Virus record (IMG/VR): IMGVR_UViG_3300024058_000001
Span: 32,001-96,000 of that record
DNA length: 64,000 nucleotides
Direction: 5' to 3' (one strand)
From: a virus
Taxonomy: Duplodnaviria; Caudoviricetes
In this document: one piece after another, positions 33,890-53,038 of the stretch
Layout of the letters: each line of letters starts with the position of its first letter
Numbering within the stretch: the first letter of the stretch is position 1
The notes under the pieces: generated by a model
What the model was told of the DNA's origin: nothing
What the model saw: only the letters and a program-made list of their open reading frames with translations
Database searches by the model: none
Program-made: the position numbers and the translations under genes

Positions 33890-35821
33890 TTAAAGGGCTT
33901 TACCGAACTTAGCATCAAGCATCTTATTGACAACATTGTCTTTAAAACGCTCTTGATCGGGGGTCAACTTTGTTCCTTCTACACGCCATTTGGTTACAGT
34001 ATCAATATCTTTCTGTAGAGTATTATCTACTTTACCATCAGCATCTAGACTTTTTTCAATCTTGAACTTTCTCGGCTTAGGTTGACGCATTTGCTGTTCT
34101 ATCCCATCGAATCGCTTTCTCAGCGAATCCACTGCATCTACTACTTTTGATAGATCGTTCTGTGATCCATCGGCTTTCCTACTTCTTCCTGCTAAATAAC
34201 CTGCACCAGCAGCAGCGCCAACTTGGGCGCGACGACTACGAACTGCACGACCTGCAATATGCGTCATAGCTGCACGTGAACGTGCTACGTCTTTTACTCT
34301 AGATGCACCAGTTTTTACTTTCCCTGCCACACTTCTCGCTTGGCCTGGAACTTTACTAGCTGCACTACGAACTGCACCAACTGCGCGTTGTCCTACTGTG
34401 CGTCCTGCACTAATTGCGCGTTGTCCTAATTTACGACCTGCTCTAAGAGCTGCCATTGCAGCACTGCCTAAAGCTTTTTCTGTTGCTTCATCATCATCTT
34501 CATAATTCTTTTCTGTATCCTCATCGCCTTCTGGTTCCGTATCTTCATACGGATATGCACCTTCAGGATCTTGAGTTTGAGCATCTACAGTAGCGGGATG
34601 TTTACCAGGATATTTATCACCTTCGGAATCATGGCCATCTTTTTCGACCTCTTCTTCCGTTTCATCGTGATCTTCCTTTTCAAATTCTCCCTCTACTTCT
34701 ACATAATCAGCCTTTTCTGGATCGTCATCACCATATGGATAGTTGCCTTCGGCGTGTTGATTTTGTGGATCAACATCCGCAGCAGCTCCTGAATCTAAGG
34801 GATCAGTCTCCCCCAGGTCTGGATCTGATGTCGAACCTTTAGGCGTTCCTTTTGAACCCTCAATGGGTTTATAAGCACCTTCATATGCTTTGTCGATAAT
34901 ATCGGCAAGATTTGTGACAACCTCTACCAATGCATCGACTTTCTTATTCAATTCATCTATTTTCACGTTATTCCCTCCTCGGTAAACGTCTTTTACATGC
35001 GATTCAAATGCAGAACCTAATACTTCTTGAGCTTTGTCAAGTACTGCATCTGTTTCTTCAGTTACTAAATTATACTTCTCCATAGTTTCTAATGCCCGAA
35101 CTGCATGAACTTTATCTGGCATTGGAATTAATCTTTCCTTTGTTACTACTGAATCTTTAACAGACTTTCTAATAACACCAAAGTCGTCATCACTCAGTTT
35201 TTCTAATTGTTCTGTGTTTAATACTTTTCTAACCAACGAATCTGCTTTTTCTCTATGTTCCTTAACTTCTGTAAAAAGTGGATCGGTAGCTTCTGTTATA
35301 ACAACTTTCTTGATATCCTCAACAATTTCTGTTTGATAAGGTATACCATTAATGCTTTTTATTAAAGAAAAAGAACATCCAGGATTTGCAGGATTATCTA
35401 CTAGAGATAATTCATTAAGCTTATACTTGGTAATTCTACTAATATTTCTTGAACTACCAGTATCTAAGTCTTTAATTACTTCTTGTACCTTATTTACTGT
35501 TTGTCCACCAATAGAAAAACCATTCAAAATCCCTTCTTTAATCTTTTCCCATGTGTCACCTGCACCCTTCGATATATAGGCTTCTATCCAAATTTTCTTA
35601 GTATCATCATTTGGAGTAATTTCTATAGCCTTGCCTACCGCTTTGGCTTCGTGCATCTCACGGATATTTCCTTGCCATTTACTAAATGCTTCCTTGCTAC
35701 CATTATAGTCAACTATCTCGTTTTGTTTATCAATTTCCTCAGTAGTTGCCCAACCAGCGACTGTACGCTTTTCTGTATCTATTTTCTCAATAGGTACGTA
35801 CAAATTAAACTTAGTGCTCAT
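33890..35821 (-). CDS. Prohead protease (HK97/XkdF type) fused to scaffold, with a cationic insert
   Basis: NIREMH..KAVGK, GFSIGG, ELSLVDNPANP; acidic middle; coiled-coil C-terminus. Confidence 0.9.
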   Translation of the reverse strand: MSTKFNLYVPIEKIDTEKRTVAGWATTEEIDKQNEIVDYNGSKEAFSKWQGNIREMHEAKAVGKAIEITPNDDTKKIWIEAYISKGAGDTWEKIKEGILNGFSIGGQTVNKVQEVIKDLDTGSSRNISRITKYKLNELSLVDNPANPGCSFSLIKSINGIPYQTEIVEDIKKVVITEATDPLFTEVKEHREKADSLVRKVLNTEQLEKLSDDDFGVIRKSVKDSVVTKERLIPMPDKVHAVRALETMEKYNLVTEETDAVLDKAQEVLGSAFESHVKDVYRGGNNVKIDELNKKVDALVEVVTNLADIIDKAYEGAYKPIEGSKGTPKGSTSDPDLGETDPLDSGAAADVDPQNQHAEGNYPYGDDDPEKADYVEVEGEFEKEDHDETEEEVEKDGHDSEGDKYPGKHPATVDAQTQDPEGAYPYEDTEPEGDEDTEKNYEDDDEATEKALGSAAMAALRAGRKLGQRAISAGRTVGQRAVGAVRSAASKVPGQARSVAGKVKTGASRVKDVARSRAAMTHIAGRAVRSRRAQVGAAAGAGYLAGRSRKADGSQNDLSKVVDAVDSLRKRFDGIEQQMRQPKPRKFKIEKSLDADGKVDNTLQKDIDTVTKWRVEGTKLTPDQERFKDNVVNKMLDAKFGKAL

Positions 35822-35842
35822 TTTTACCTCCTAGATTTAAAT

Positions 35843-35867
35843 CGGGAGGGGTATAAATCCCCTCCCG
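35843..35867 (-). other. Stem-loop upstream of the protease gene
   Basis: CGGGAGGGG-7nt-CCCCTCCCG. Confidence 0.75.
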
Positions 35868-35881
35868 TTGGAACTGTTAAA

Positions 35882-36073
35882 TTACGTAACAGTAATAGCT
35901 TTGGTCACGCCATCAACACGGACTTGCAAAACATCAGTGTCACCGCGATACCACATATCACCATCCCGAAGATCATCTGGATCAGCATCCAACGGGATCA
36001 AGTGCATCTGTTGCACATTTACTTTATTCCACTCTTGCTGAAGTTGCGGATTCTCTTGTGAATTCTCGGCCAT
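35882..36073 (-). CDS. Small capsid decoration/fibre-like protein
   Basis: Very strong AAGAGGAGGA RBS; DPDDLRDGDMWYRGDT motif. Confidence 0.55.
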   Translation of the reverse strand: MAENSQENPQLQQEWNKVNVQQMHLIPLDADPDDLRDGDMWYRGDTDVLQVRVDGVTKAITVT

Positions 36074-36111
36074 TTTGGTTTCCTCCTCTTTCTAGTATAC
36101 TATAGTATATT

Positions 36112-36411
36112 CTATTTGCATTTCACACAAATAGATTTACCGTTTGAAACGGTAATTCTGTGTACTACTTCTTTACAAACATCACAAACTAACGGTCTTT
36201 TTTCTCCAATACCTGAAAATATTAAACCGCTTCCTATTGCAGTTGAAGATTCGGCCCTTCTTATAAGTTCTGGATTATCAGATTTACATTCAAACTTTGA
36301 ACCGTCATCATGTTCAACAACAAAAGTCTTTTCGCCTGTACGTCTAACTTTCTTTGCTACTGAATCTTCTTTAATTTTACCTGTAGTATTTGTATTACGA
36401 ATAAAACTCAT
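36112..36411 (-). CDS. Zinc-ribbon (FmdB-like) protein
   Basis: CDVC...CVKC. Confidence 0.5.
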   Translation of the reverse strand: MSFIRNTNTTGKIKEDSVAKKVRRTGEKTFVVEHDDGSKFECKSDNPELIRRAESSTAIGSGLIFSGIGEKRPLVCDVCKEVVHRITVSNGKSICVKCK

Positions 36412-36641
36412 TTTATCTTTCCGTGAGCCTTTAAATTATACCATGCATTAAATAAGCCTCTTACACTTGCAAAACCACTACCCATAGATTTACTACTTAA
36501 TGTTACTGCCTTGCCTATTTTTCCCAAGTCCTGTGGTCTTTCTACATAATCCAGCAATCCGTTTTCTACAGATTCTGTAACAAATCTTCGGATTACGGGC
36601 TGCCAATCTAAATCTTGTTCTTCTACTACAAAGTATTCCAT
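36408..36641 (-). CDS. Hypothetical protein
   Basis: Coupled ORF. Confidence 0.55.
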   Translation of the reverse strand: MEYFVVEEQDLDWQPVIRRFVTESVENGLLDYVERPQDLGKIGKAVTLSSKSMGSGFASVRGLFNAWYNLKAHGKIK

Positions 36642-37525
36642 TATCTTCTCGCAGTCGTGTCATGATCACAACGACAGTTACCTAAACAATCGTTAGTTCC
36701 CCACTCATCATCAAAATCCTGTATAGTCATCCATCTTCCTGAATTTTCTAAGCAACCTTCGCAAACTGGACCACCTTTACCTTCATTAGGATGAATCGTC
36801 CATACCCCGCCTATAGGTTTAAAATGTCCTAGTTTTGGATCAGCTATAGCAAATGCAGCAACAGTTCCAGAAACAACTAACCCGAATGCAGCTAATGCAT
36901 ACATTTTTGCTCTAGCACGTTTAGGTTCTTGTATTTTTTCTTCTATTGCTTCTTCTAATTCCTCAAAGCTGTGATATTCTCTATCCATTAGTATGTCTAA
37001 TGCCTCTTCTAGATTAGTAGCAAATGCAACTAAATAAACTTCGTTTTCGTCTAACCGTTCCTCAATTATTTCTTCATCTGTTTTAGAAAAACTATCGTCT
37101 AATTCTTGATTGCTAATTACTTGACCACGAAGTTTACCAAGTCTAAAACCATCTTCAAATCTATTACGTGCTTCATTACTTAATCGTCTTCTTAATTCTC
37201 CGATTCTTCCTCTAGCAATTAATTTGCGTCTATCACTTATAGTAACTTGTTTTTCTAGTCCTTCTTTAAGATCTTCTTTAACTTTATCAAATATATAATC
37301 CCAAATATTTTCAATTGTACTTCTATATCTACTAACTATTTTATCAGCTTGCTTTGTAACTTTTGGAGCAATAAGTTTTCTCTTAAAAATATCTCTAGGA
37401 TCATTATCAAATTCGATGGATGATATGCTAGGGTAAGAATCAATAGTAGTTATAAACTTTACATTATCATTATAAATCTCTCTGGCTTCTACTAAAGTTA
37501 TCGGGGAATCAAATTTTAATATCAT
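36641..37525 (-). CDS. Mu gpF-like minor head morphogenesis protein
   Basis: C-terminal VCEGC...CLGNCRC. Confidence 0.7.
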   Translation of the reverse strand: MILKFDSPITLVEAREIYNDNVKFITTIDSYPSISSIEFDNDPRDIFKRKLIAPKVTKQADKIVSRYRSTIENIWDYIFDKVKEDLKEGLEKQVTISDRRKLIARGRIGELRRRLSNEARNRFEDGFRLGKLRGQVISNQELDDSFSKTDEEIIEERLDENEVYLVAFATNLEEALDILMDREYHSFEELEEAIEEKIQEPKRARAKMYALAAFGLVVSGTVAAFAIADPKLGHFKPIGGVWTIHPNEGKGGPVCEGCLENSGRWMTIQDFDDEWGTNDCLGNCRCDHDTTARR

Positions 37526-37575
37526 GGCATTCCATTATCTTTTTTCATTAGATTATAAGAATCATTTAAATTTCC

Positions 37576-38748: not shown

Positions 38749-38750
38749 AA

Positions 38751-39662
38751 TTACGCTCCTATACTAAACATTGTACAGATTATTGATGGAGTAGCTGGTA
38801 TTGTGGGTGGGCCAACTTCTAATGCTGTGAATTTTAATCCTAATCCTACTGAAGTACTTGTAACTCTTTGCATCAGCCTTACTTTATCACCAGCATCTAA
38901 TACTATTGTGATTCCTAAAACAATCACATCAGTAGCCGTGTTATCGCTAACCGATACGATAATATTAGAGTTAGGTTCATCTACAAACCCGCTACCACGA
39001 TCTACTTGTAAAAACATATTCAATGCCTGTGAAGATCCTCCAGAGGACTTTCCGACTTGAGGTTGTGGCAACATAAAGTACTTTCCAGCCGTATCTATTG
39101 TAATTTCACCTGGATTAACGGTTGTGCTATGAGTCATTCCTGCTATATCATCTTGAGTATTATATGTAATAACAACAGGGGTTGTTACAGTTGGTTCTTG
39201 ATCTACACTGCTACTTAATTGTGCAAATATACCAGAACCACCGCCACCGCCCAAATCTGCTATTGATTGCACCGTAACTTTCTTTATATTGAACGAATCT
39301 GATGCATCAGCAATCAGAACTTCATCTGTTGGGGCTGCTGTAACCGATGCTTCAGGGTTGATAGCCACATCAAACGTTCGATTGACTGAAATATCCCCGC
39401 CTCCTACAAGCCCATCTCCTGCGATAAGAGTAACTGCTGTATGATCAATGTGCTCATTGGGGATAAAGTTCAACAATAGATCATGGTCAATACTTGTTTG
39501 GTCAACATCAAGCGTAAGGTCTTCATCTCCACCGTCATTTGTTTCAACAACGGTCAACTTAGTACTACCCGCAACGATCTTACTAAGTAAAAAATCGGGT
39601 GTGGAATCGTTAGACGTAACCCTTACCTTATTTGATTCCTTTTTACTAAGTGTAATAGCCAT
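38751..39662 (-). CDS. Fibre protein with C1q/BclA-like C-terminal beta-sandwich
   Basis: AGDGLVGGGDI; ITIDTAGKY...LDAGDKVRL. Confidence 0.6.
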   Translation of the reverse strand: MAITLSKKESNKVRVTSNDSTPDFLLSKIVAGSTKLTVVETNDGGDEDLTLDVDQTSIDHDLLLNFIPNEHIDHTAVTLIAGDGLVGGGDISVNRTFDVAINPEASVTAAPTDEVLIADASDSFNIKKVTVQSIADLGGGGGSGIFAQLSSSVDQEPTVTTPVVITYNTQDDIAGMTHSTTVNPGEITIDTAGKYFMLPQPQVGKSSGGSSQALNMFLQVDRGSGFVDEPNSNIIVSVSDNTATDVIVLGITIVLDAGDKVRLMQRVTSTSVGLGLKFTALEVGPPTIPATPSIICTMFSIGA

Positions 39663-40486
39663 TATACTGTTACCAACATTTCAAATGGAACTGTTGCAGC
39701 AGACGACGAAACGGCAACCGCACTGTGATTTGCCTCAATACTTAGAGATTGTCCAGGAAGAACTGTTTTTGTGTTCGCTCCACCGTCAAAACTCACAAGT
39801 AGATTATTTGATGCATCGAGATTATCTATTAGGATTGCCTTTGAGGTTCCAGTAAATGTTACGTTAGCGGGAGTTGTCGTAGCGGTTCCGTTATGATGCT
39901 CTGCGACTCCTGCAGTACCAGCACCACCAGCACTATCCACCACCTTAAGATCATCTCCAGTAAAGATTAGTTTATCAGTCTGCGCCTTAATAGCTGCAAG
40001 AGTAATTTCTGTCGCTCTCGTAGCTAACGTTACTTCACTGGCTCTTGTCGCTAGTGTTGTCTCACTTGCCCTCGTAGCTAATGTTGTTTCGCTTGCCCTC
40101 GTAGCTAATGTTGTTTCAGTTGCAAAATCTACAGCTAGTAATGCAGCTAAAGTTGTTTCTGTTGAAAAATCTGTGGTTAATAAAGTAGCTAATTTACCAT
40201 CAATCAATAGAAGTGTATCGTCTGTAGCAGGATTAATAATTGCAGCAGCAATATTTTTTAAGCCAACTGGATCAACACCACCGCCACCGCCACCAGATAC
40301 ATCTAAACTAGCAGTCCCATCACCATTATCTGTTGCAGACGCTGGCAAATAGCCCACAACTTCGTTACTTTCTACAATAGGGAAGACTAATACTGAAGAT
40401 GATTTTCTATTTTCATCGTATGGAAACGCTGGTAATTTTTTACTTACGTTTTTCTTTGGATCAATCGCCATATTTATTTCCTCCAA
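39662..40486 (-). CDS. Fibre/decoration protein with ETTLATR repeats
   Basis: Tandem A[ST]E[TVI]TLATR; small beta C-terminal domain. Confidence 0.6.
   Translation of the reverse strand: MEEINMAIDPKKNVSKKLPAFPYDENRKSSSVLVFPIVESNEVVGYLPASATDNGDGTASLDVSGGGGGGVDPVGLKNIAAAIINPATDDTLLLIDGKLATLLTTDFSTETTLAALLAVDFATETTLATRASETTLATRASETTLATRASEVTLATRATEITLAAIKAQTDKLIFTGDDLKVVDSAGGAGTAGVAEHHNGTATTTPANVTFTGTSKAILIDNLDASNNLLVSFDGGANTKTVLPGQSLSIEANHSAVAVSSSAATVPFEMLVTV
39992..40123 (-). repeat. 27-bp coding tandem repeat (about 5 units)
   Basis: ATETTLATR ASETTLATR ASETTLATR ASEVTLATR ATEITLAAI. Confidence 0.85.
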
Positions 40487-40933: not shown

Positions 40934-41468
40934 TATAAGCCTCTTTTAGCGATTTATGCTTAGTCTGAAGTTGAAATAAATTTGTCGTAATTTGCGCCAT
41001 TGCTTCATTATTATGCGCGTTTCTCATATGATTATAAAAAAAATGAACTAATTCGTGAAATAACACCCATTCGTCCCCATTATAAATAATGATATCTTTA
41101 CCTATTAATTTATCTAAATTTACTCCTGCATGATATCTACCGTTATAAAATTTTCCGATAGCCGTAGGTGGATCATCTAAGGTCTCGGCTAAATAAATTC
41201 TAACCTTACTATTTACTTTATCAGCCGAAAAGAATTTCTTAAGAACTCCGTACATCTGTTCTGCCGTTTCTGCATCTGCTGCATACGAAATAATATGGTC
41301 TGTTTCTTGAGTAACTTTTGTACTAACTAGATTATAATCTTTAAGTTCTATTCTAAATCTTTTACCTGGATTAATATACAATAATATAGAATAGCAAAAT
41401 AATATAACTAAAATAACTCTAATTACTATTTTTCTTAACTTAACCACTATCGTCCTCATCAAATCCAA
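40875..41468 (-). CDS. Membrane-anchored HEXXH zinc metallopeptidase-like protein
   Basis: N-terminal TM helix; VLFHELVH...NEAMA. Confidence 0.65.
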   Translation of the reverse strand: MDLMRTIVVKLRKIVIRVILVILFCYSILLYINPGKRFRIELKDYNLVSTKVTQETDHIISYAADAETAEQMYGVLKKFFSADKVNSKVRIYLAETLDDPPTAIGKFYNGRYHAGVNLDKLIGKDIIIYNGDEWVLFHELVHFFYNHMRNAHNNEAMAQITTNLFQLQTKHKSLKEAYNEIDTKYRAGIISEIYETN

Positions 41469-43230
41469 TTCTTAAATCTGCGTCTATTCCTTGTTTTCTT
41501 AATTCTTTTACAGTTTTATCTACTAATTTATTTTGTTCTTTATATTTCTTTTTTCTATTAACCGAAACTTTTATAGTATTAGTACCATCTGAAATAGAGG
41601 GAGGTACCGCATTTTCCATTGTAGGACGACCTGCATCGCCATCAACTTGTTGTTCAGGTTCAGGCCCTGGTTGCAATCCAAAAGGATCGGTTCTCTCATT
41701 TTGTTGAAATCCTCGATTAGGCATACCGCCTAATTCATCAAGTTTATCAATATCTTTAACTGGAACCATACCAACACCAGTTTTAATCATTTGTTCATCT
41801 CCGCCCTCAATGGGCTTCTTACCAAGTTTCTTTCTTCTTTCATTAATTGAAATAACACCAGAATCCATGTCAAGTCTGTCAACCTGCGATTGCTGGATAT
41901 CGTCTTTTAGCTCTGCACTTTGCCATTCAAATTTTACATCCTGAAAACCAAACTCTGCCTTTACAATCTCTTCATTAAAAAAAGAAGCTAACAAATTTAA
42001 AAGTGTTTTAACTCCTCTTGCTTGTGATAGCTTTGCTTGAACTTCAGCGGTAGTACGGTGAAAGTCTAAGACAAACCCTATGTCCTGTGGGCTTATTCCG
42101 TATACCGCGCATTTAATGGCAACTGTCCATTTTAAATATTCCATCATTTGCATGTCTCTATTAGACTGCACACGCATAGGAATAAAATCTAATTTGTCAG
42201 ATCCTGATGTAATTAATAGTTTATGAAGACCACCTCGACCTTGTACTTCTTGTTCCCATAAATTTTGAAACATCTGTCGTTGGTCTTCAGATACATTTTC
42301 TCCAAGATTTAGCACACCAGGAGGAACATTAGAATTTTTAAAATAATCAATATTATATTCATCTGCATATAAACTTGCAGTAATAATATACGCAGCTACT
42401 TCTAATGGAGAAACACCATAGCCAGTTTGTTGAGGATTTTGAGATATATATAGTAATTCGTCATTTGTAAATTCTGCACGAATTACTCCTTTATCTTCCC
42501 ATACATATGCAGGTTCTGGTGCTTTAGGTATCGTTCTATCTTCATTTCTATAAATCTTTACTTCTTGTCCTGGTAATGGATAAATCTCCGCCAAATTTCC
42601 AAGATAATCATAATTTTTTACAATAACACCAGAATCGTAAATTAAAATATCATCTAAAACTAACTCTAATAATGTTCTAAATGTTGTTTCTGTTTGATTT
42701 GGATGCTCTAAAATACACTTAACTTTGTATTTATGTTCTTCTGCATTCTGTTTAACTCGTTTTGCCCACGCCTTAAAAAACCATCTAACGGCTTCTCTTT
42801 TTGCTTTTTCATCTATAGCCTTTTCAATAATTGGAGGAAGACTACTTCGTATTTCATCTTGTATTTCTTCTGGTAAAATTTGAGATTTAAACGGAGGAAG
42901 ATCATATCCATAAGGATTAAGAGAAGTTAAAATAGATTCTTCCCACCTATCCAATTCAGCCTCTAAATTATCGGTATCAGGGACTATATCCCATTTAGTC
43001 TGACTAATAAATCCTTTTATTACTCTGCGAATAGCCCAAGTAACTGGATCAGTATTCGCTAATCGCCCTAATGTTGCAGCACTCAGAGTAAATTGTCGCT
43101 GAACTTTTTTACCAGTGGTATTATTAAGAAATCTAAACATACCTTTGCGAGGTACGGGTTCACCACGACCTGGATCAAGCTTTAGTGCTTTACTAAAGGT
43201 ATTCTGAATTTTCTTAATTAAGTTTGCCAC
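41440..43230 (-). CDS. Portal protein
   Basis: GYGVSPLE, YFKNSNVPPGVL, CAVYGISPQDIG, SINERRKKLGKKPIEGGD. Confidence 0.93.
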   Translation of the reverse strand: MANLIKKIQNTFSKALKLDPGRGEPVPRKGMFRFLNNTTGKKVQRQFTLSAATLGRLANTDPVTWAIRRVIKGFISQTKWDIVPDTDNLEAELDRWEESILTSLNPYGYDLPPFKSQILPEEIQDEIRSSLPPIIEKAIDEKAKREAVRWFFKAWAKRVKQNAEEHKYKVKCILEHPNQTETTFRTLLELVLDDILIYDSGVIVKNYDYLGNLAEIYPLPGQEVKIYRNEDRTIPKAPEPAYVWEDKGVIRAEFTNDELLYISQNPQQTGYGVSPLEVAAYIITASLYADEYNIDYFKNSNVPPGVLNLGENVSEDQRQMFQNLWEQEVQGRGGLHKLLITSGSDKLDFIPMRVQSNRDMQMMEYLKWTVAIKCAVYGISPQDIGFVLDFHRTTAEVQAKLSQARGVKTLLNLLASFFNEEIVKAEFGFQDVKFEWQSAELKDDIQQSQVDRLDMDSGVISINERRKKLGKKPIEGGDEQMIKTGVGMVPVKDIDKLDELGGMPNRGFQQNERTDPFGLQPGPEPEQQVDGDAGRPTMENAVPPSISDGTNTIKVSVNRKKKYKEQNKLVDKTVKELRKQGIDADLRIGFDEDDSG

Positions 43231-43633
43231 TTTTTATCACCAGTTCTATAAGGGCTATTATATTTTTATGCTCTAATAGTTCCATTTGATTTCTATATGT
43301 TTTTCTAGCTTTCTCATCTTTGACATATGTCTTAATCAAAAAATGAACAAATTCATCTAGTTCATTAAATCTTACATGTAATAATTCATGAGCAATCGTA
43401 CTATCTAATTCTTTCGGAGATTCTAATAAAAGTTTTTTGTTTAGTTCTATGTCTGCGGTACGGGTTTCTTCATCCACGTACACCGTTGCGTATGATCCGC
43501 TAATTTTATCTTTCTTTTTTATCTTGGATGGTAATACAATATCAACCTCAAATTTGTAATCACTAATCCCAAGAAGTTTAGCGTATCGCACAACTTTCTT
43601 TTTTATATCGCTTTTTAATCTTTTTTTTATCAT
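43214..43633 (-). CDS. SprT-like HEXXH zinc metallopeptidase
   Basis: LDSTIAHELLH...LEH. Confidence 0.7.
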   Translation of the reverse strand: MIKKRLKSDIKKKVVRYAKLLGISDYKFEVDIVLPSKIKKKDKISGSYATVYVDEETRTADIELNKKLLLESPKELDSTIAHELLHVRFNELDEFVHFLIKTYVKDEKARKTYRNQMELLEHKNIIALIELVIKSGKLN

Positions 43634-43895: not shown

Positions 43896-43897
43896 AA

Positions 43898-44179
43898 TTA
43901 TATAATTCGTTCAGGCAACCAGGCTGAATATGCAGGTCTAACTCTTGGTGTATCTGATGCAATTTCGTTATCAGGTTGAGTAACCCTATTAGTCATCTGA
44001 TTTTGTTGGTGCTTTTGGCCGTGAACGATGTCCTCATTTTTCTTTTTTGGTCGTTTAATTCCTAAATCTTCTCTAACAAGTAAAAGTCCAGGAACATCTA
44101 TAGAAGTTATTTCTTTTCTAATAGTTTGAAGTTTTCCTAAATAATCTCTAAGTTGTTCTATGAATTCCAATTTGTTCAT
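43898..44179 (-). CDS. Small protein carrying a copy of the capsid protein N-arm
   Basis: IRKEITSIDVPGLLLVREDL vs capsid IQKAISSTDVSGLLLVREDL. Confidence 0.7.
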   Translation of the reverse strand: MNKLEFIEQLRDYLGKLQTIRKEITSIDVPGLLLVREDLGIKRPKKKNEDIVHGQKHQQNQMTNRVTQPDNEIASDTPRVRPAYSAWLPERII

Positions 44180-44183
44180 TTTA

Positions 44184-44501
44184 TTATCCTGTAAAATGGC
44201 TTATTACTCTAATTATAGTCCAACCTAGTCCTATAATTATAACTAATACTTTTAGTACAATAGACAAAAATTCCGAAGCCCCTTGAACTTTCAATGACTT
44301 AGTTTCTAATGGCTCTAATCTCTTACCATAAGCTTTAATAGCGTTACCATTTTCTTCTATTAAATGAGGCAAATGATTTGTAACATGAGTATTTACTTCA
44401 GTAACAAGTTTGCCTAATTCAGTAACCTCATATTTAAGACCATCTACTTCATTTTCAATATGTTTTATTCTACCTTCGTATCTATCATCTGCCATATTCA
44501 A
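44184..44501 (-). CDS. XhlA/holin-like coiled-coil membrane protein
   Basis: Coiled coil, TNHLPH motif, single C-terminal TM helix. Confidence 0.5.
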   Translation of the reverse strand: MNMADDRYEGRIKHIENEVDGLKYEVTELGKLVTEVNTHVTNHLPHLIEENGNAIKAYGKRLEPLETKSLKVQGASEFLSIVLKVLVIIIGLGWTIIRVISHFTG

Positions 44502-44504
44502 ACC

Positions 44505-44837: not shown

Positions 44838-44846
44838 CGCTCACCT

Positions 44847-45803
44847 CTATTTAAAATAATCAAAACTAAAACGTCTACGTCCTTCTCTTGGGCGTATTTG
44901 ACGGCCATTAACTAAATAATTTCTATATGTTGCTGTATTAAGAACTTGATAAGTATTTGCTACTCTGCTAGAAACAATTTTTCCCTCATCAAATGCCCCT
45001 AACTTAGAATCAAAATAATAAACTAAATCGCCTGGTTTAAATCGACGAAATATTCTAAACTGTTTATCTATAGCATTATCTCTCTTACTTGTCTTTGAAC
45101 GTCTTTTACCAGCAGCATAGCCTGCTGCAGGCAATGCACTTATACCTGCTATACGCGCTGTTTTACCTGCAATTCTTCTTTTACCTGCACGTGTACCCAT
45201 ACTTTGTCTAAATGTTTCTGCTTTATACCTTTGTTTACGTCCTATATTACGTACCTTAACTCCTACTGAACCTAATTTACGTCCTATTGTAGAGACTGCA
45301 CTAGCTATTCCTTTTTTTGTATTTACATTTGCAGTTGTTTCAATTCCTCTTTCATCTGACATTACAACAGGAACCTTTTCATAGCCAAGTTCTTTAAGAG
45401 CTACAAATCTATGATGACCATCTGTTACCATTTTACCAGGTTTTCCATCATGGTCAATTTCGGTATAAACTAATGGTTTAATATCTCCACTAATTTTAAT
45501 AGCGTGTTTTATTTTGTCTACCTTGTTTCGGTCTAATGTTCTATTATATGGATTTGGAAGCAACTCAGAAATGTTAATTTCTTCTATTTTTATCTTTACC
45601 ATTCTTCCCCATTGACTATTTCCGCGATGCTCACTTCTAGGGCCAATGGCAGAAGATCCTTCACTCGAAGGATTAAAATTAAAACCTTCTGCTTCAGGCG
45701 GATTAGTGCTAATAGCAGGAAATCTATATTCCCGTGTTTCAGCCTTATTTATCTGCCTAGTTAAATCTCTTAGTTGAGTCCATGTTTTCATATTTGTTAT
45801 CAT
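44847..45803 (-). CDS. Multi-module protein: QLRD leader + ParB/Srx-like domain + cationic cassette + SH3/Tudor-like domain
   Basis: LLPNPYNR...IKPL...VTDGHHRFVALKELGYEKVPV; TKK-GIASAVSTIGRKL; FKPGDLVYY. Confidence 0.7.
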   Translation of the reverse strand: MITNMKTWTQLRDLTRQINKAETREYRFPAISTNPPEAEGFNFNPSSEGSSAIGPRSEHRGNSQWGRMVKIKIEEINISELLPNPYNRTLDRNKVDKIKHAIKISGDIKPLVYTEIDHDGKPGKMVTDGHHRFVALKELGYEKVPVVMSDERGIETTANVNTKKGIASAVSTIGRKLGSVGVKVRNIGRKQRYKAETFRQSMGTRAGKRRIAGKTARIAGISALPAAGYAAGKRRSKTSKRDNAIDKQFRIFRRFKPGDLVYYFDSKLGAFDEGKIVSSRVANTYQVLNTATYRNYLVNGRQIRPREGRRRFSFDYFK

Positions 45804-45813
45804 CTTGTAATCT

Positions 45814-48114
45814 TTAAATTATTCGTGTTTTAGTTCTAGCAGCAAGATTTCTAACCCTTCCCAAATCTCGATATGTTTTGGATCTTGTAGCTGCCTGTGC
45901 TCTGCCAATTTGTTTAATTCTTCCTAATTGTTGAACCTGCTGTCCCATCATTTGCCCAATTTGTTTTCTTTCTCTAACTATTCTATTGTATTGTGCATTA
46001 AGTGAAGGCTTCTTTATTTTTTGTCCTATTGAACGTATTTTACGTCCTACTGCACGTGCTGCACTGCCTATACCTTTTTCTGTATCTTCTGTAATACCAT
46101 TCCAACCGCATCGTTTTCTTAAATTCTTTAATTCCTTTTTAATATTTTGTAATTCCATTACCTTTTTTCTTTTCTTACGTCCGTATGCTGACTTCATCCT
46201 ATATCCCATCATTCTAGCTCCTGCAGTTCCTACCTTTATACCCAAATTTCTTCTACGAGCACCTTTTGGCAATTTTCCTGCTGCGATACGAGACAAAGCT
46301 CCACCAGGACGTTTTAGTTCCGCTTTAGCACCAGCGTCAAGACCTATATTTATTAATTTATTACCTACACGTCTAACAACAGATCCCACTTTAGATCGTA
46401 AACCTTTTTCTGTATCACCATTTTTCAAATTATCTAGTTTCTTTTTAACATCTGTAATAGATACTACCTTATAACTTTTCTTAGGTTTACCAAACGCGCC
46501 TAAACTATGTGCAAGATAACTACCTTCTGCAACAGGAAGGGCCACTCTTGCTACTCGTCCCACACGTGTTCTTCCAAATTTAGCTCCTGCACGTTGGGCT
46601 GATAATCCTGCTCTACTTCTTACTCCGCGTGTTCCTTTCCATCCTGCTTTTGTTCCTGAAATTAACTTAGGAGCTAACTTTCTGCCTATTGCTAACGCTC
46701 CACGTCCTGCAGCTACCAAAGCAGCTCCATATTTTTCTACATCCTCTGTATCATCCATATCTTTTTCTATATCTGCCATTTGGTCAACTTTATCAAAAAG
46801 CTCCATAATATCATTTAGTTCTTCAGGAACTAAATACTTTATCAGTTCCTGTTGTTCTACTGGAGATGCAAATTCCAACATGTCAATGATCTCAGCAATA
46901 CTAAAATCTTTAGATAAATCCTTTGTTTGTGCACTTTTTTCTCTAAATACTCTGCCTAACAATCCTGATCCAGGTGTGTGAGCAACTGTTGTTACAGGTT
47001 TTGATGCACCAATGGCATCTCTTATTTTGCCAGTTCTAAAATCTTTAATTCCTCCACCTAAAGTTTGAGTTGTATATACTCTGTTTACTGGAATTTTTCC
47101 TACGTAAGTCTTTATTTTACCTCCAAGTTGCCTTAGCCTCTTTATACCAGCACGTCTAGTCGCTGGATGTGCTAACGCAGCAATAGCACCAAGACCTGCA
47201 GCAGCACCCGCAATACGGCCAGCTTTACCACGTTTAGAACCTTGCTCTGCTTTATTAATAATTTCCATATGACCTTTAGGATCGTCACACCATATTTTTT
47301 GTAATGAACCATCTGAACTTACCTTAGTAACAGAAACACCTTTCATTGCAGGTAAACCAAATGTTGGCTCAACTGGTTGTCCTGGTTGTCTTAATGGCCC
47401 AGGCACTTGCGCTTCTTCTGGTTCTACAGGTGCTTCAGGTACTTCAGGAACACCACCAGGTTCAACACTAGTATCTACTTGTCCTTTACAATGTGGACAA
47501 ACTACTTGTAAGGGTTTTGCTTCTTCTGGAGTTTCCGCAGATTCCTCAACATCTTCTTGAGGTTCCTCTTCTGGAAGTTCTTCTTCTCCTTCAGATCCAC
47601 CAAATTCTCCTGTTTCTAAATCTTCAGGAACTTCCTCTGCAGATTCGTCTTGAGGCTCTTCAATTACTTCCCCATTTTCATCAACAACATCTTCTTCTTT
47701 TTCTTCCTCTTCGGGCAAACGCTCTTGTGGGTCATTAGCGTTAGTTGTAGCTATTTGTTCACCAGGTTGTTCAGCTTGTCCTTGCATTTCTTGATCTGTC
47801 TGAGGATTTATATTATCTTCTACAGGTTTATCTAATACCTGTTCAGCCGTAGATTCTACCACTTCTTTTTCTTTAGGTGGTAACGCATTTTCTAATTCTT
47901 CTAACTCTTCTGGAGACATATTAGCCAATATGCCCTTTTTAATTTCATTATCAAACTCTTGTTTGCCAACATCGATTCTACCCTTGCTCGTAAATACATG
48001 AACGATTTTCTTTTGGGTTTCAGTTGTAACTTCACCCTTTTTAATAGCGTCCAAGTCAGCTTGGGTAAAGTCAAATCGTTGACCCTTTACCACGATTGTA
48101 TACACTTTACTCAT
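45814..48114 (-). CDS. Putative internal head polyprotein (acidic region + four cationic cassettes)
   Basis: Glu/Pro-rich N-half; cassettes after IINK, DVEK, DTEK, DTEK. Confidence 0.7.
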   Translation of the reverse strand: MSKVYTIVVKGQRFDFTQADLDAIKKGEVTTETQKKIVHVFTSKGRIDVGKQEFDNEIKKGILANMSPEELEELENALPPKEKEVVESTAEQVLDKPVEDNINPQTDQEMQGQAEQPGEQIATTNANDPQERLPEEEEKEEDVVDENGEVIEEPQDESAEEVPEDLETGEFGGSEGEEELPEEEPQEDVEESAETPEEAKPLQVVCPHCKGQVDTSVEPGGVPEVPEAPVEPEEAQVPGPLRQPGQPVEPTFGLPAMKGVSVTKVSSDGSLQKIWCDDPKGHMEIINKAEQGSKRGKAGRIAGAAAGLGAIAALAHPATRRAGIKRLRQLGGKIKTYVGKIPVNRVYTTQTLGGGIKDFRTGKIRDAIGASKPVTTVAHTPGSGLLGRVFREKSAQTKDLSKDFSIAEIIDMLEFASPVEQQELIKYLVPEELNDIMELFDKVDQMADIEKDMDDTEDVEKYGAALVAAGRGALAIGRKLAPKLISGTKAGWKGTRGVRSRAGLSAQRAGAKFGRTRVGRVARVALPVAEGSYLAHSLGAFGKPKKSYKVVSITDVKKKLDNLKNGDTEKGLRSKVGSVVRRVGNKLINIGLDAGAKAELKRPGGALSRIAAGKLPKGARRRNLGIKVGTAGARMMGYRMKSAYGRKKRKKVMELQNIKKELKNLRKRCGWNGITEDTEKGIGSAARAVGRKIRSIGQKIKKPSLNAQYNRIVRERKQIGQMMGQQVQQLGRIKQIGRAQAATRSKTYRDLGRVRNLAARTKTRII

Positions 48115-48250
48115 TTTAGTTCTCCTTTAGATTTTTCTTCAATTTTTGGACAAATTCGATGTTGCCAACCAATTGTTTGACCATCTTTTATTATTGGTAA
48201 AATATTTTCATCATTAATATCAAAAGTGTCTTTACACTTCAGACATACAA

Positions 48251-48454
48251 TCATTTTTTAATTCGCCTCTTAGCCAGCATATGCCCATGCAATCTGTTTG
48301 ATATATCATTGCTTATAGGAATTATTTCATAGCCTTTATCTTCTAATTCAAAAATTAATTCAGCAGTGAAACATTGGAATTCATCACCGTTAACTATATC
48401 TCTAAAAAGCTTAACTATTTTAGCTTTTTCGTTAATTTCCAGACGTATTTTCAT
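48251..48454 (-). CDS. Hypothetical protein
   Basis: 67-aa ORF in operon. Confidence 0.45.
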   Translation of the reverse strand: MKIRLEINEKAKIVKLFRDIVNGDEFQCFTAELIFELEDKGYEIIPISNDISNRLHGHMLAKRRIKK

Positions 48455-48818
48455 TTTTCTTAATTACTCTTTTCTTATTTGTATAAGGATTAACTAAACC
48501 TTTTTCTATCATTATATCATTAACAGATTTTTTGCTGTTATCTAAATATAAAAATGCAATATAACGGTCATGATATTTTCCTGGCTTCAAAGATTTCAAC
48601 ATGATTTCTTTATTTAGTATTGTTTCTTCTAAATATTTTTTTGCAGCTAAAGCCTTTTCTAAATTCTTTTTATCTTTTAATTCGTATGAATCAATACCTG
48701 CAAATCGAATTTTAATAGTACGAACAATCCTAAATCCTAAATCTACGGCTACTACAACTGTATCTCCATCAACAATTCTAGTGACCATCGCGTTATATTT
48801 AAACATTTTTTCCTCCAT
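48432..48818 (-). CDS. Thermonuclease (SNase-like)
   Basis: RIVDGDTV..VDLGF...IRFAGIDSYE...GKYHDRYIA...VNDIMIEKGL. Confidence 0.88.
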   Translation of the reverse strand: MEEKMFKYNAMVTRIVDGDTVVVAVDLGFRIVRTIKIRFAGIDSYELKDKKNLEKALAAKKYLEETILNKEIMLKSLKPGKYHDRYIAFLYLDNSKKSVNDIMIEKGLVNPYTNKKRVIKKNENTSGN

Positions 48819-50121
48819 TAGCTAGTTTTACAGCAGCAGGAATATCTATAATTCCTCTTCCTTGTTCACGATCAGCATATCCTATACCTTTAGCTGTTGC
48901 CCTTAAAAACATTTTTACCTTTTCGCCTCTATTCCTAGACTTCGGTAATTTTGCAGCTTCTATTAATAAGGCAGCAGCACCTGCAACATGAGGAGTTGCC
49001 ATAGAAGTTCCAGACATTTTTTGAAACATTGTATTATTACTGTCCACAACAGTACATTTATCTACTTTTTGATCTGCTGTTTTAACAGATGTAATACCAT
49101 CTCCATAAGGACATCCATGTTCCGCTTTAATACCACCACCAGGAGCTACAACATCAGGCTTACTTAAATTTCGGTTCCTATCTATAACAGGGCCACGTGA
49201 ACTATACGTTGGTATCCTGTTTATTTGATCAACCGAACCTACTGTTATAACTTTTTCTGCCACACCTGGAGATGATATTGTGTCGGGTCTTGGCCCTTCA
49301 TTACCTGCAGCAACAACTACAACAATTCCTTCTTCTGCTAATCTGTTGGCTTCCCGTGACATGGCATCATTTGCATGACCACCGCCACCAAGACTCATGG
49401 AAATAACATCTGCGCCCTGACTAGCTGCCCAAGACATACCTCTAATTATTCTATCTGTTGTATTGCGTCCTGATGCAGCAAGAACTTTTGCATCAATTAA
49501 CGCAACTTTTGGAGCTACACCTTTATAGGTAGAATCATTACTTGCGACTATACCCGCGCAATGCGTACCATGCCCAACTTCGTCTAATTTCCTTGGATAT
49601 AATTTGTTTTTAATTTGATTAAATAATGGAAAATAACTTTTACCTGTAAAATCTTGCCTTGCTACTACTTTTCCTTTTAAACTTGGATGATTATCATTTA
49701 TACCAGTATCTATGATAGCTACTTTTACGCCTTCACCTTCGTATCCAGCACCATGAAGATTAAAAGCACCGCATTGATTCACAGCTTTGTTCATCATAGT
49801 GTGTACTTCGACTACTTGTTCTATTTCTACATTTAAAGAATTGCTAATTCGTAGAATTTGTTTTTCTGATAAATAAGTAGGGAATTCAACAACTATGGCA
49901 TTAATACGTTTATGAACTTGAAGTATCTTCCCGCCTAATTCTTTTAATTGTTTAAAATCGAAACCAATCTTTTTAAGATATCGATAAACAAGAAATAATA
50001 GAACAAACCCCAATATAGGATGATCTGCAAAAACAGTTTTTGCTATTTTACCTACTTTTAGATAAAAAAAATATCTATTTGTAAGTAACTTTTTATCGAG
50101 GGGTTGTTGATATAAACTCAT
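48799..50121 (-). CDS. Subtilisin-like S8 serine protease with N-terminal TM and propeptide
   Basis: AIIDTGI, GHGTHCAGIVA, AAGNEG, SGTSMATPHVAGAAALL. Confidence 0.95.
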   Translation of the reverse strand: MSLYQQPLDKKLLTNRYFFYLKVGKIAKTVFADHPILGFVLLFLVYRYLKKIGFDFKQLKELGGKILQVHKRINAIVVEFPTYLSEKQILRISNSLNVEIEQVVEVHTMMNKAVNQCGAFNLHGAGYEGEGVKVAIIDTGINDNHPSLKGKVVARQDFTGKSYFPLFNQIKNKLYPRKLDEVGHGTHCAGIVASNDSTYKGVAPKVALIDAKVLAASGRNTTDRIIRGMSWAASQGADVISMSLGGGGHANDAMSREANRLAEEGIVVVVAAGNEGPRPDTISSPGVAEKVITVGSVDQINRIPTYSSRGPVIDRNRNLSKPDVVAPGGGIKAEHGCPYGDGITSVKTADQKVDKCTVVDSNNTMFQKMSGTSMATPHVAGAAALLIEAAKLPKSRNRGEKVKMFLRATAKGIGYADREQGRGIIDIPAAVKLANGGKNV

Positions 50122-50197
50122 TTATTTGTCCTCATTTTAGACAAAACAGTCTCCTCCCGCACATGAATATATTGTGCGCGGTCAAATGCTTTATCTT

Positions 50198-50971
50198 TTA
50201 TATTTTTTTTAAACGTTCAACAGAAGCTTTTAGAGACTTGATACTTTTCTTTTTAACAGGAGGAGAAACGTATTCATCCTCTGTTTTTTTTGCTTTTCCA
50301 GCTTTTTCTACTGGTCTAAGCACTTGCAAATTTGAAACTAGTTCGTGATTAAACGTGCCATTTGCCCATTTAACCATAGCAGCTTGATTACCATCCACAG
50401 CAGAATACACTTTCAATACCTGACCAACTAGTTTATTTCCACTGCGTAAAATCTTAATGACTACATCATGTACGCGAATAGAATCACTATAGTTATGTTG
50501 ACCTTGTATCTGATCAGAAAGTCGATCTTCTTCATAATAAGGTTTGTATGCCTTATTATCTGTATCAGCATATTCTTCTTTAAGATAATCACCCTTAATG
50601 GTTCCAGAATTATCTTCCGTAGGAACCTTTTCTTCTTTATTATCGGTTGTATGACGATTATCTTTGCGTGTAGGATCACCAGTACCTTGACTTTTATCAC
50701 CCGTTGCTACCACACGTTCTGGTACATCAGACATTCTGCTATATCCACCACGAAACTGATCATTTTTAAAAGCGGGTGTATTCTTAAGATCAACCCCTTT
50801 TCTAATTTCTTCAGCCGTAGTGGCTTCAAACTTCATTCCACCATATTTCATTTCAGCAAGCTTATCATACATTTCATCAACGAAAGTTTCTTCTACTTTA
50901 GTCAAAGGAATGCACTTACTACGTTTTTCAAGTATCGTATCTAACTTCTGTTTTAGCTCTTTATTGTCCAT
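50198..50971 (-). CDS. Putative internal head protein with SH3-like domain
   Basis: ILEK/IRK/VEK sites; VGQVLKV...AMVKWANGTF; C-terminal amphipathic helix. Confidence 0.5.
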   Translation of the reverse strand: MDNKELKQKLDTILEKRSKCIPLTKVEETFVDEMYDKLAEMKYGGMKFEATTAEEIRKGVDLKNTPAFKNDQFRGGYSRMSDVPERVVATGDKSQGTGDPTRKDNRHTTDNKEEKVPTEDNSGTIKGDYLKEEYADTDNKAYKPYYEEDRLSDQIQGQHNYSDSIRVHDVVIKILRSGNKLVGQVLKVYSAVDGNQAAMVKWANGTFNHELVSNLQVLRPVEKAGKAKKTEDEYVSPPVKKKSIKSLKASVERLKKI

Positions 50972-51182
50972 TTTCTATATCCTCATTCTTATTTGTACTA
51001 GCGTTTTCTCTAGTACTTTCATCCAATTTTACTATATCACGATATAAATCCCAAGTGTAGTCGCATATTGCGTCTACTTGTTCGGGTGTAATATTTTTAG
51101 TATGAATCCTTGAAGTTGCTTCGCAAACATCACGCCATTGTTCTGGAGCTTTTTCTGGTAAATTATTAAGATCAATTCTCAT
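50961..51182 (-). CDS. Hypothetical protein
   Basis: 73-aa coupled ORF. Confidence 0.55.
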   Translation of the reverse strand: MRIDLNNLPEKAPEQWRDVCEATSRIHTKNITPEQVDAICDYTWDLYRDIVKLDESTRENASTNKNEDIENGQ

Positions 51183-53038
51183 TATTTGCGCCTCAAACTT
51201 CTAAGAGTTTTAATACCTTTAAGTTTTCGTCCCATTTTAAACAATGCTATGGAAATAGGACGTTCAATTGGTTTTAAAAATTTTAATTTTGGTAATTTAG
51301 TAATTCCTCTTAATACTCTAGACGCACTAAATAAACCAACACCTAAAATTTCATTAGGTTTAATACCCAATGCTGCTAAAGTAAAAGCACTTCCTATTAC
51401 TCCTATAGCAGCATCAGAACCAAGATCGCCAAATATGCCTACTGTAGAACTAACAACTTTTGCAGTATTTCCTGCCGTACCTCTTACTATTCCTTTACCA
51501 ATATTAGTCAACTTTCTTTCGGCTCTATTAACAGAATTATTAGCCTGTGCATTAACCGATGCATCTGATAATCTAGATATGCGTTGTTCACGCCGTTGGC
51601 TTTGTCTCTGCTGTCGTCGTGTAGCAGGTTCAGGAGCTTTAGGAATTGTATCTTGTTTTTTACCTCCGCGCCCTGCCCAACCTCGACGTGCAGCTTCTGC
51701 ATGTCTAACGGCATCTCCAATCCAACCTTTTTCTACAGTTAATTTATCTAGTTTATCATAAATAATCTCAAAACTTTTTTTATGTTTAAAATATTGAATT
51801 TGACGTTCTCTGTTTTCTGCTGCACCTCTAGTAGCAAATTTTTCTTTGCGTCCATCAGAGAAATGTAATGCATATCCACTATCTTCTCTACGTATTACTT
51901 TGTCTACTCTAAGAAGTTGTTGTTCAGAATCGGATGCTTTTCTGGAAGGGTCAATAGAAGACAAAAGATGTTGTGCTTCTTCTAAGATAGGAGTAACTAA
52001 TTCGTCTGTATCTCTCTCCGTAATGATTCCCTGAATCTGACCTCTTGTTTGTAATTCTTCTAAATTATGAATAAGTTCTACTAATTCTTGTACTACTTGT
52101 CCAAGCCGTATTTTTTCTGTAGAAGCTTCGTTGCCAGGAAGTCCATCAGGAGGATTACTGTGCATATTGGGATAATCTGTAAGATTTTGACCACTATACT
52201 CTTTCCTTACTTTTTCTTTACCTTTTTCTCTAGGATTTACTGCAGACGCTGCTGCATCTTTTTTAGTTTCTTGTTCCTGATCTCCCTTGACTGACGGAAT
52301 AACATCTAAAATATTATTTAATTCTTTCTTTTCTTTGTCATTCAATGAATCAGATAATTTTTTCTTTTCTTTTTCAGATAGTTGGCCCAATTCTCTTAAA
52401 ACATTTGCAACATAATTGCCATCATCTTCAGGAGTACTAATTTGTTTCAAAAATTTTTGTGGGGGTTCTGGCTGTCTACCCTTAGGTTTAGCCCGCCTTA
52501 ACCTAGAAAGTAATATACCACTAGCAGCAATTCCAACCGCCCATTTCATTCGTGGGCTTTTAACAGCATGTACGACTCGCTGACCAGCACGACCAACACT
52601 TTCTGCAGCCTTAATTCCTCTTTGAACAACTTTCGCGCCTGCTTTTACACCTCTAATTCCCGCTGCAACTGTACGAATAACAGGCTTTGCAATTTGTATA
52701 GCTGTCGCTGCACCTAATGATAAAAGCGCAGTTCGACCTACCCAAGCTGTTCCTCGCGCTCCTCTTGCAGCTTCTGCATGTCTAGCATTATCTCCAAACC
52801 AACCACGTTCTTTTTGTACTTTTAATGATTTACTTTGACTTAAAGAATATTGAATACTTGTATTTGCAACATTACGAGTGCCTCTAGGTTTTTTGTTAGA
52901 ACTTGTCACTTGTTTGTTTTCTCTTGTATCCACAAGAATCTTATTAATTTCATCTCGCGTTACAATCTTCACGCTCTTAGTATACTTTTTACTAAGTGCG
53001 ATATCTAATTGTTTATTTCTTTCATCATCAATAAGCAT
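51182..53038 (-). CDS. Putative internal head polyprotein with two GWxGDxxRHAEAAR cationic cassettes
   Basis: VQK-ERGWFGDNARHAEAARG and VEK-GWIGDAVRHAEAARRGW; RERQIQYFKH mini-domain. Confidence 0.65.
   Translation of the reverse strand: MLIDDERNKQLDIALSKKYTKSVKIVTRDEINKILVDTRENKQVTSSNKKPRGTRNVANTSIQYSLSQSKSLKVQKERGWFGDNARHAEAARGARGTAWVGRTALLSLGAATAIQIAKPVIRTVAAGIRGVKAGAKVVQRGIKAAESVGRAGQRVVHAVKSPRMKWAVGIAASGILLSRLRRAKPKGRQPEPPQKFLKQISTPEDDGNYVANVLRELGQLSEKEKKKLSDSLNDKEKKELNNILDVIPSVKGDQEQETKKDAAASAVNPREKGKEKVRKEYSGQNLTDYPNMHSNPPDGLPGNEASTEKIRLGQVVQELVELIHNLEELQTRGQIQGIITERDTDELVTPILEEAQHLLSSIDPSRKASDSEQQLLRVDKVIRREDSGYALHFSDGRKEKFATRGAAENRERQIQYFKHKKSFEIIYDKLDKLTVEKGWIGDAVRHAEAARRGWAGRGGKKQDTIPKAPEPATRRQQRQSQRREQRISRLSDASVNAQANNSVNRAERKLTNIGKGIVRGTAGNTAKVVSSTVGIFGDLGSDAAIGVIGSAFTLAALGIKPNEILGVGLFSASRVLRGITKLPKLKFLKPIERPISIALFKMGRKLKGIKTLRSLRRK

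Follow-up and report, generated by a model that had tools for sequence, protein, structure and literature searches.

The head region of a phage represented by a 104,771-bp IMG/VR record with direct terminal repeats raises the question of why four of its proteins carry long, strongly basic segments almost free of acidic residues, and of what becomes of these segments. The stretch analysed here (the window) is 64,000 nucleotides long and corresponds to bases 32001-96000 of that record. The segments, here called cassettes, are encoded by genes that all lie on one strand, between the terminase and capsid genes. The answer favoured here, with a probability of roughly 0.5, is that the products of the four genes would be precursors loaded into the prohead and trimmed there by the maturation protease, so that basic peptides would stay behind on the DNA. 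Packaging, cleavage and the fate and function of the peptides are steps that we infer from sequence.

An earlier note on this DNA had quoted cassette and junction strings from these genes and from the capsid gene, and all of them were reproduced by translating the four minus-strand open reading frames (ORFs) and the capsid gene. Its eight basic, nearly acid-free cassettes in four head-region proteins (P0001-P0004) were also recovered, with lengths of 83-181 residues and a net charge of +18 to +26 in each. The genes and cassettes are as follows, a slash marking the junction after the Lys; K+R and D+E are residue counts.

33890-35821, minus strand: P0001, 643 residues, prohead protease (S78) fused to a scaffold.
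34475-34861, minus strand: acidic linker of P0001, residues 321-449, net charge -38, with several xEK sites.
34145-34474, minus strand: cassette c1, type A, P0001 residues 450-559 (110 residues), K+R 23, D+E 3, net +20, between ATEK/ and DLSK/.
44847-45803, minus strand: P0002, ParB_N nuclease-like domain (Pfam PF02195 at 6.9e-07), then c2 and a small C-terminal domain.
45063-45311, minus strand: cassette c2, type A, P0002 residues 165-247 (83 residues), K+R 22, D+E 3, net +19, between NTKK/ and AIDK/.
45814-48114, minus strand: P0003, 766 residues, with a 60-residue N-terminal domain, an acidic disordered half (net -51) and then four cassettes.
46909-47250, minus strand: cassette c0, P0003 residues 289-402 (114 residues), K+R 23, D+E 5, after IINK/, with its end at DLSK/.
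46459-46731, minus strand: cassette c3, type A, P0003 residues 462-552 (91 residues), K+R 19, D+E 1, after DVEK/.
46147-46404, minus strand: cassette c4, type A, P0003 residues 571-656 (86 residues), K+R 24, D+E 3, after DTEK/.
45817-46074, minus strand: cassette c5, type A, P0003 residues 681-766 (86 residues), K+R 22, D+E 2, after DTEK/, with the most amphipathic N-terminus.
51182-53038, minus strand: P0004, 618 residues, a conserved middle domain between two type-B cassettes, with homologues P0006-P0009.
52454-52810, minus strand: cassette c6, type B, P0004 residues 77-195 (119 residues), K+R 24, D+E 5, after VQK/, with a hydrophobic Gly/Ala helix.
51185-51727, minus strand: cassette c7, type B, P0004 residues 438-618 (181 residues), K+R 37, D+E 11, after TVEK/, with hydrophobic helices.

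The cassettes fall into two families. Type A (c1, c2 and c3-c5) has the header [TV]-[EK]-K followed by G-[IL]-G-S-A...G-R-K, and often ends in a Gly/Ala-Tyr motif followed by basic residues. Type B (c6 and c7 of P0004) has the header K/..G-W-[FI]-G-D..R-H-A-E-A-A-R, and c0 of P0003, which is Gly/Ala-rich and basic, carries neither header. In an alignment of seven type-A sequences (17-36% identity) only two columns are invariant, and one of them is the Lys preceding the cassette. Among the minus-strand ORFs of the whole genome, acid-free runs of at least 40 residues with a high content of both K/R and G/A/S occur almost exclusively in P0001-P0004, with one weaker run elsewhere (ORF 5554-6438). 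An acidic spacer, said earlier to precede most cassettes, is found before about five of the eight. P0003 and P0004 belong to no Pfam or PHROG family and have no recognised domain.

P0001 had been taken for the protease, and Pfam and PHROG matches confirm it as an S78-type prohead protease fused to a scaffold. The match to Pfam PF04586 is just over the cut-off (22.6 bits, cut-off 21), and residues 5-157 match PHROG 9427, 'head maturation protease', at 9.5e-39. His57 (REMH) and Ser103 (GFSIGG), which we take to be the catalytic residues from knowledge of the S78 family, are invariant in eight orthologues. As c1 lies inside the protease-scaffold, which is necessarily in the prohead, the paralogues of c1 in P0002 and P0003 most simply act in the prohead as well. 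The earlier statement that the HK97 prohead protease cuts after Lys agrees with a 2026 paper, in which cleavage after Lys is given for both HK97 gp4 and T5 pb11, two S78 proteases (PMC13517437).

The junctions have a recognisable sequence context. D-[ILVTM]-[EQSDNK]-K is found 14 times across eight head-region proteins (2.0 +/- 1.4 expected) and 21 times in the other 157 proteins (18.6 expected), and in P0003 all six matches are at cassette borders. [TV]EK[GAY] is found eight times, with 3.6 expected, and six of the eight are in head-region proteins. Since the motifs were refined post hoc and the paralogous repeats share ancestry, evidence independent of the motif definition was sought.

Relatives were gathered via the capsid protein (25 loci) and via P0004 and P0002. 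The scaffold cassette c1 is missing from all seven aligned P0001 orthologues, in which the acidic linker is retained at this site and leads into D-[LI]-x-K and the conserved C-terminal region; the window copy sits exactly between its two junctions. Six P0002 orthologues could be compared (flanks 51-85% identical), two with c2 and four with a clean 84-column gap. The ..IDK that follows c2 is invariant among them, and the cassette of the second cassette-bearing orthologue opens with NTEK/G. In a homologue of P0003 on an ENA contig (L033), whose first 300 residues are near-identical, one additional cassette follows DMEK/, another opens with EVEK/A, and the C-terminal half of c0 is replaced. In the P0004 family, an additional type-A cassette follows RVDK/ in P0006; P0008 carries a type-B one behind RVEK/ and lacks c6. 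P0009, a relative of 978 residues, has a ParB_N domain fused to type-B headers, each after ..EK/, its other regions being without assignment. ParB_N domains precede three unrelated modules, each of them after [TVI]-x-K/[GA], and in a more distant ParB_N protein, from the complete relative G001, an unrelated module follows SIDK/A. All four gain or loss cases fall at x-K junctions, and on the basis of these and the G001 module, the aliphatic/Thr - polar - Lys junctions are the points of module exchange.

A second line of evidence comes from the placement of Lys and Arg. Products that survive a protease recognising phi-x-K (Lys two residues after I/L/V/T/M) should avoid this pattern, while discarded spacers need not, and the two basic residues were compared by Fisher test with one-sided P. 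Over all eight cassettes there are 12 phi-x-K and 38 phi-x-R (odds 0.34, P=0.0024), for type A plus c0 five and 23 (odds 0.23, P=0.0027), and for the cassettes of the L033 homologue one and 16 (odds 0.09, P=0.006). The non-cassette parts of P0001-P0004 have the opposite bias (63 vs 14, odds 2.4), and all other proteins are neutral (794 vs 433, odds 0.93). Arg makes up 0.58 of the basic residues in the cassettes, 0.29 in the rest of the same proteins and 0.35 in the proteome of this AT-rich genome. As an amphipathic pattern would not separate Lys from Arg, cleavage after Lys finds its best indirect support here. Together with the junction indels, the depletion of Lys in cassettes and its enrichment in spacers fit a protease that would degrade the spacers and spare the cassettes.

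Several observations weigh against prohead loading and trimming of the four products. The loose form of the motif, [ILVT]-x-K, which the earlier note had put forward as the release site, is not enriched genome-wide (800 observed, 759 +/- 21 in shuffles). The junction motif is degenerate, the paralogous cassettes are not fully independent observations, and the tighter D-phi-polar-K motif and the Lys/Arg test were both framed after the data had been seen. The type-B cassettes show the Lys bias only weakly (odds 0.54, P=0.21) and the cassettes of P0006 do not show it (odds 1.12). An AlphaFold2 model of P0003, made with no alignment, has a predicted local distance difference test (pLDDT) score of 46, with low-confidence helices located in the cassettes. 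The interval from the large terminase to the portal also includes plainly non-structural genes (SNase, a membrane-anchored subtilase and a HAD-like protein), so position alone is no proof of packaging, and two other proteases are encoded nearby (the S8 subtilase and a small HExxH protein). The P0004 family has no match in the five complete relatives G001-G005, and no such cassettes were seen in the head-region DNA retrieved from G001-G005 or from other major capsid protein relatives. The cassettes thus appear dispensable for assembly and are, by sequence comparison, dispensable add-on modules.

Some of these points would be expected if the cassettes were never excised and acted in cis as disordered or helical basic regions, the x-K junctions being a linker inherited with the repeat. 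Such regions could bind the acidic scaffold core or DNA, drawing the attached domains into the head and keeping them there, or could bind nucleic acid in the cell. The loose motif without genome-wide enrichment agrees with this, as do the conservation of composition rather than sequence, the availability of very acidic partner regions (scaffold net -38, P0003 net -51), and the short DNA identities shared by paralogous junctions, which were possibly inherited together. However, action in cis does not account for the avoidance of Lys, and not of Arg, after aliphatic-x in cassettes where spacers favour it, nor for the invariant pre-cassette Lys among repeats that are 17-36% identical, nor for unrelated modules behind the same x-K junction. 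It is regarded as unlikely.

If the four products are indeed trimmed in the prohead, the following course of events would be expected. The precursors would sit in the prohead with the scaffold, one of them being the protease-scaffold itself. Before cleavage, the strongly acidic linker of the scaffold (net -38) and the acidic half of P0003 (net -51) would probably serve as binding partners for the basic cassettes; charge attraction to the acidic linker would recruit the cargo to the core, and the precursors would be enclosed with it. The S78 protease would then cleave behind the Lys of aliphatic/Thr - polar - Lys sequences, in which P4 is often Asp and P1' often Gly/Ala. Acidic spacers, with their many sites, would be chopped into small fragments that could exit the shell, and the Arg-rich cassettes, with few sites, would survive as basic peptides of 80-180 residues (net +18 to +26). 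On the packaged DNA these peptides would serve as counter-ions or retention elements, and they would probably leave the head together with it on ejection. Passenger domains would be freed simultaneously, namely the ParB_N nuclease-like domain, the middle domain of P0004 and the small C-terminal domains.

A bolder proposal, considered unlikely, is that the cassettes are 'self-erasing' insertion modules, each bringing Lys sites on both sides or landing at a place flanked by them, so that the maturation protease would remove it once assembly is complete. A module of this kind could colonise any prohead-resident protein harmlessly, even the essential protease-scaffold, and the phage would have a fast way of gaining and replacing capsid cargo. 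At infection, the freed cationic helices with their Gly starts would target the envelope or the nucleic acids of the host, and not be confined to a counter-ion role.

The cassettes had been described as amphipathic. Among the five type-A cassettes, this stands for the N-terminal 18 residues of three (c1, c2 and c5), which have a hydrophobic moment of 0.43-0.69, reached by at most 1.2% of shuffles; over whole cassettes the pattern is significant in only three of the eight. P0003 (residues 301-319) and P0004 (103-121 and 539-561) contain borderline transmembrane-like segments, less hydrophobic than is typical of transmembrane helices; P0001 and P0002 contain none. A period of 11 residues is seen in c1. 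The ESM Atlas yielded no usable match.

These features bear on the idea that the cassettes, released or still attached, might be membrane-active ejection proteins whose amphipathic cationic and Gly/Ala-rich hydrophobic helices enter the host envelope at infection, permeabilising it or building a conduit for DNA. The strongly amphipathic N-termini of c1, c2 and c5, the borderline segments (one in P0003 and two in P0004) and the 11-residue period of c1 with its internal 33-nucleotide duplication would suit such a role, and phage SU10, a distant relative by capsid family, has five ejection proteins in its head (PMC9509320). However, helical periodicity over the whole cassette is confined to three of eight, the segments are not hydrophobic enough for typical transmembrane helices and are absent from two of the four proteins, and the close relatives examined have no cassettes, yet must deliver their DNA. 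A membrane role of this kind seems quite unlikely.

Nearly all genes of the phage are on the minus strand. With coordinates falling, the head region begins with the large terminase (53638-55512), followed by a zinc-finger ORF, a 100-residue ORF, P0004 (51182-53038), two small ORFs, the S8 subtilase (48799-50121), SNase (48432-48818), P0003 (45814-48114), P0002 (44847-45803), five small ORFs and the portal gene (41440-43230), and ends with several genes without assignment, P0001 (33890-35821) and the SU10-type capsid protein gene (32823-33833). Five of its genes outside the cassette-bearing set are as follows.

53638-55512, minus strand: large terminase, with matches to the PHROG terminase large subunit.
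50198-50971, minus strand: 257-residue protein with PVEK/AGKAKK near the C-terminus and homologues in L032, L033 and G001.
48799-50121, minus strand: S8 subtilase (Pfam PF00082 at 1.1e-60), with an N-terminal hydrophobic anchor and a propeptide-like region.
41440-43230, minus strand: portal protein (Pfam PF04860 at 1.8e-33).
32823-33833, minus strand: major capsid protein of the SU10_MCP family (Pfam PF17236 at 1.4e-14), N-arm with DIQK/A.

The S8 subtilase gene adjoins that of SNase (48432-50121, minus strand). Both keep their synteny with the P0004 family in L032, in L033 and on an ENA contig of 62 kb, and the subtilase is co-inherited with this family. The subtilase has no match in G001-G005, which are more distant relatives. 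A 139-residue ORF that overlaps the portal start (43214-43633, minus strand) has an HExxH motif and a weak SprT-like match under the Pfam cut-off; no homologue was found at the corresponding place in G001.

Processing could in principle take place outside the capsid, by the subtilase or the HExxH protein, the products acting in the cell or at lysis. Subtilases process peptide precursors in other systems, and the synteny of the S8 gene, SNase and the P0004 family in four related contigs, the lack of matches to both the S8 gene and the P0004 family in the five more distant relatives, and the HExxH motif with its weak SprT-like match are all in keeping with this. It is difficult to reconcile, however, with the position of c1 inside the protease-scaffold, which is made and consumed within the prohead. 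The N-terminal anchor and propeptide-like region suggest an extracytoplasmic or membrane site for the subtilase, away from cytoplasmic substrates, and Lys at P1 agrees with the S78 precedent. Processing by either of these proteases is considered improbable.

The earlier note had also pointed to the cassette motif at the N-terminus of the capsid protein. The motif (DIQK) is present there, but it is non-discriminating, as the entire N-arm is conserved in 17 relatives, and N-terminal cleavage of the capsid protein is therefore not judgeable from conservation. Extra D-phi-x-K sites of the capsid protein and of the protease domain fall within folded parts and are unlikely to be cleaved. A 93-residue ORF upstream of the portal gene (43898-44179, minus strand) repeats the N-arm of the capsid protein (IRK-E..GLLLVREDL; identity at 15 of 23 residues, BLASTP E=5e-7), and small ORFs with endings like ..GL.L.REDLG are found in the corresponding interval of G005 and G002. 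The 93-residue protein may, from this resemblance, be an N-arm mimic or a capsid-targeting element. A similar N-terminal helix, ..QLRD..IN.K, is shared by P0002, ORF 53149-53451 and ORF 43898-44179 (weak similarity, E 0.003-0.011). The orthologue P0016 has a 44-residue insertion directly after this element, and it may thus be a removable N-terminal signal.

Other observations concern the individual proteins. The first 60 residues of P0003 (47935-48114) are homologous to the N-terminus of a 256-residue Cys-rich protein of the neck/tail module (24421-24600, minus strand; 37% identity, E=6e-15), which suggests a common docking domain. In a 508-residue ParB_N protein of the cassette-less relative G001 (L027:14834-16360, minus strand), two K-H-[SP]-R...G-[KR]-F copies are each found shortly after x-K/A. 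Between the portal and scaffold genes, a 274-residue protein (39662-40486, minus strand) has several tandem repeats of about nine residues resembling TTLATRASE. A 105-residue coiled-coil protein with a C-terminal transmembrane helix (44184-44501, minus strand) is encoded amid the putative cargo genes and may be a lysis or membrane protein.

With regard to the origin of the cassettes, a tandem duplication of 33 nucleotides (11 residues) is found within c1 (34372-34437), and a repeat with 33-nucleotide spacing in the acidic linker of P0001 (34476-34532) doubles a TEK site. Cassettes and spacers seem to expand through in-frame duplications of 11 codons. Target-site duplications and inverted repeats were looked for at the cassette borders and none were found; the DNA identities linking cassette starts are short (15-26 nucleotides). 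A transposon-like origin is thus unsupported, the borders having no mobile-element signature, only these short identities and the internal 33-nucleotide duplications.

The cassettes have a narrow distribution. A type-A profile run against 1.84 billion protein representatives matched only P0001, P0002 and P0003 of the window, so the type-A family appears to be lineage-restricted and not a known domain. A scan of IMG/VR with the type-B header pattern gave no match, and scans of IMG/VR with P0003 and P0004 gave no relatives. Nothing was found in DNA and protein searches of a phage collection with the capsid/protease region and P0003, or in scans of JGI metagenomes with P0003 and a P0004 alignment, and a word-based search with P0003 returned only the self-match. 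Outside this phage, cassette relatives are limited to three or four contigs that are closely related.

Proteins located inside the head or ejected from it are some of the earliest phage products that the host encounters, and are poorly known beyond T4, P1 and phiKZ-like phages. If trimming in the prohead is correct, the specificity of an HK97-type protease would be readable from sequence alone, through junction indels and the avoidance of Lys in surviving products. Modules flanked by protease sites would then offer a simple route to new capsid cargo, and the arrangement would provide a compact loading tag with built-in release, by which proteins or peptides could be brought into HK97-fold capsids. 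Its practical importance is limited, the cassette family occurring only in a single rare, uncultured lineage.

Among known systems, a resemblance to amphibian antimicrobial precursors was proposed in the earlier note. It holds as an analogy (acidic spacer, basic site, Gly-started cationic amphipathic helix) and not as homology, there being no family match; in contrast to the magainin, PGLa and bombinin precursors, there is no signal peptide here, the sites are monobasic xEK rather than dibasic KR, and the cassettes are 83-181 residues long rather than 20-30. In adenovirus, Arg-rich DNA-condensing peptides are freed inside the capsid from the core precursors pVII and pX/mu by the maturation protease. 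Adenovirus infects eukaryotes, its cysteine protease is unrelated and there is no homology, so that any parallel would lie in function only.

For DdrB-like ParB domains encoded next to virion genes, packaging and injection have been predicted (Iyer et al. 2017, PMC5512222). The polyvalent proteins described there resemble the present system in having ParB_N beside virion genes (P0002 lies between the terminase and portal genes) and shuffled modules, and the relative P0009 fuses ParB_N with P0004-type modules. P0002, however, has a single recognised enzymatic domain where polyvalent proteins are defined by at least two disparate domains, there is no metallopeptidase autoprocessing domain here, and basic cassettes with K junctions as linkers are not described in that work.

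In the phiKZ-like giant phage SPN3US, many head-internal proteins, among them ejection and inner-body proteins, are likewise cut at a short consensus by the prohead protease, gp245 (PMC7411985, PMC10052503), and phiKZ-like phages also have paralogue families in the head module. They differ in the protease and the cleavage signal, the genome here is 105 kb, and the modules are low-complexity and basic rather than folded paralogues. HK97 gp4 and T5 pb11 (MEROPS S78) belong to the same protease family, have the conserved His and Ser, and remove the scaffold by multiple cuts. Their main substrate is the delta domain of the capsid protein itself, whereas here the scaffold is fused to the protease and the extra cargo precursors are proposed as substrates.

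A further parallel would be T4, which packs about 1000 internal protein molecules via a capsid-targeting sequence, in contact with DNA phosphates (PMC3012670). Its IPI, IPII, IPIII and Alt proteins, processed by gp21, are basic proteins loaded with the core, trimmed, kept in the DNA-filled head and injected (PMC3012670, PMC9024508), as is envisaged here by analogy, and they too form a diverse, fast-evolving set in which only the targeting or cleavage signal is conserved. The protease here is of the S78 (HK97-like) rather than the gp21 type, with Lys at P1 rather than the Glu of T4; there are several cassettes per polypeptide, one of them embedded in the protease-scaffold, without sequence homology to T4 proteins, and a common N-terminal targeting helix is weakly indicated. 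The principle of basic internal proteins processed by a head protease is already known. What would set the present system apart is the use of an S78 protease with Lys at P1, several cassettes in one polypeptide, a cassette within the protease-scaffold itself, and the exchange of cassettes at the junctions.

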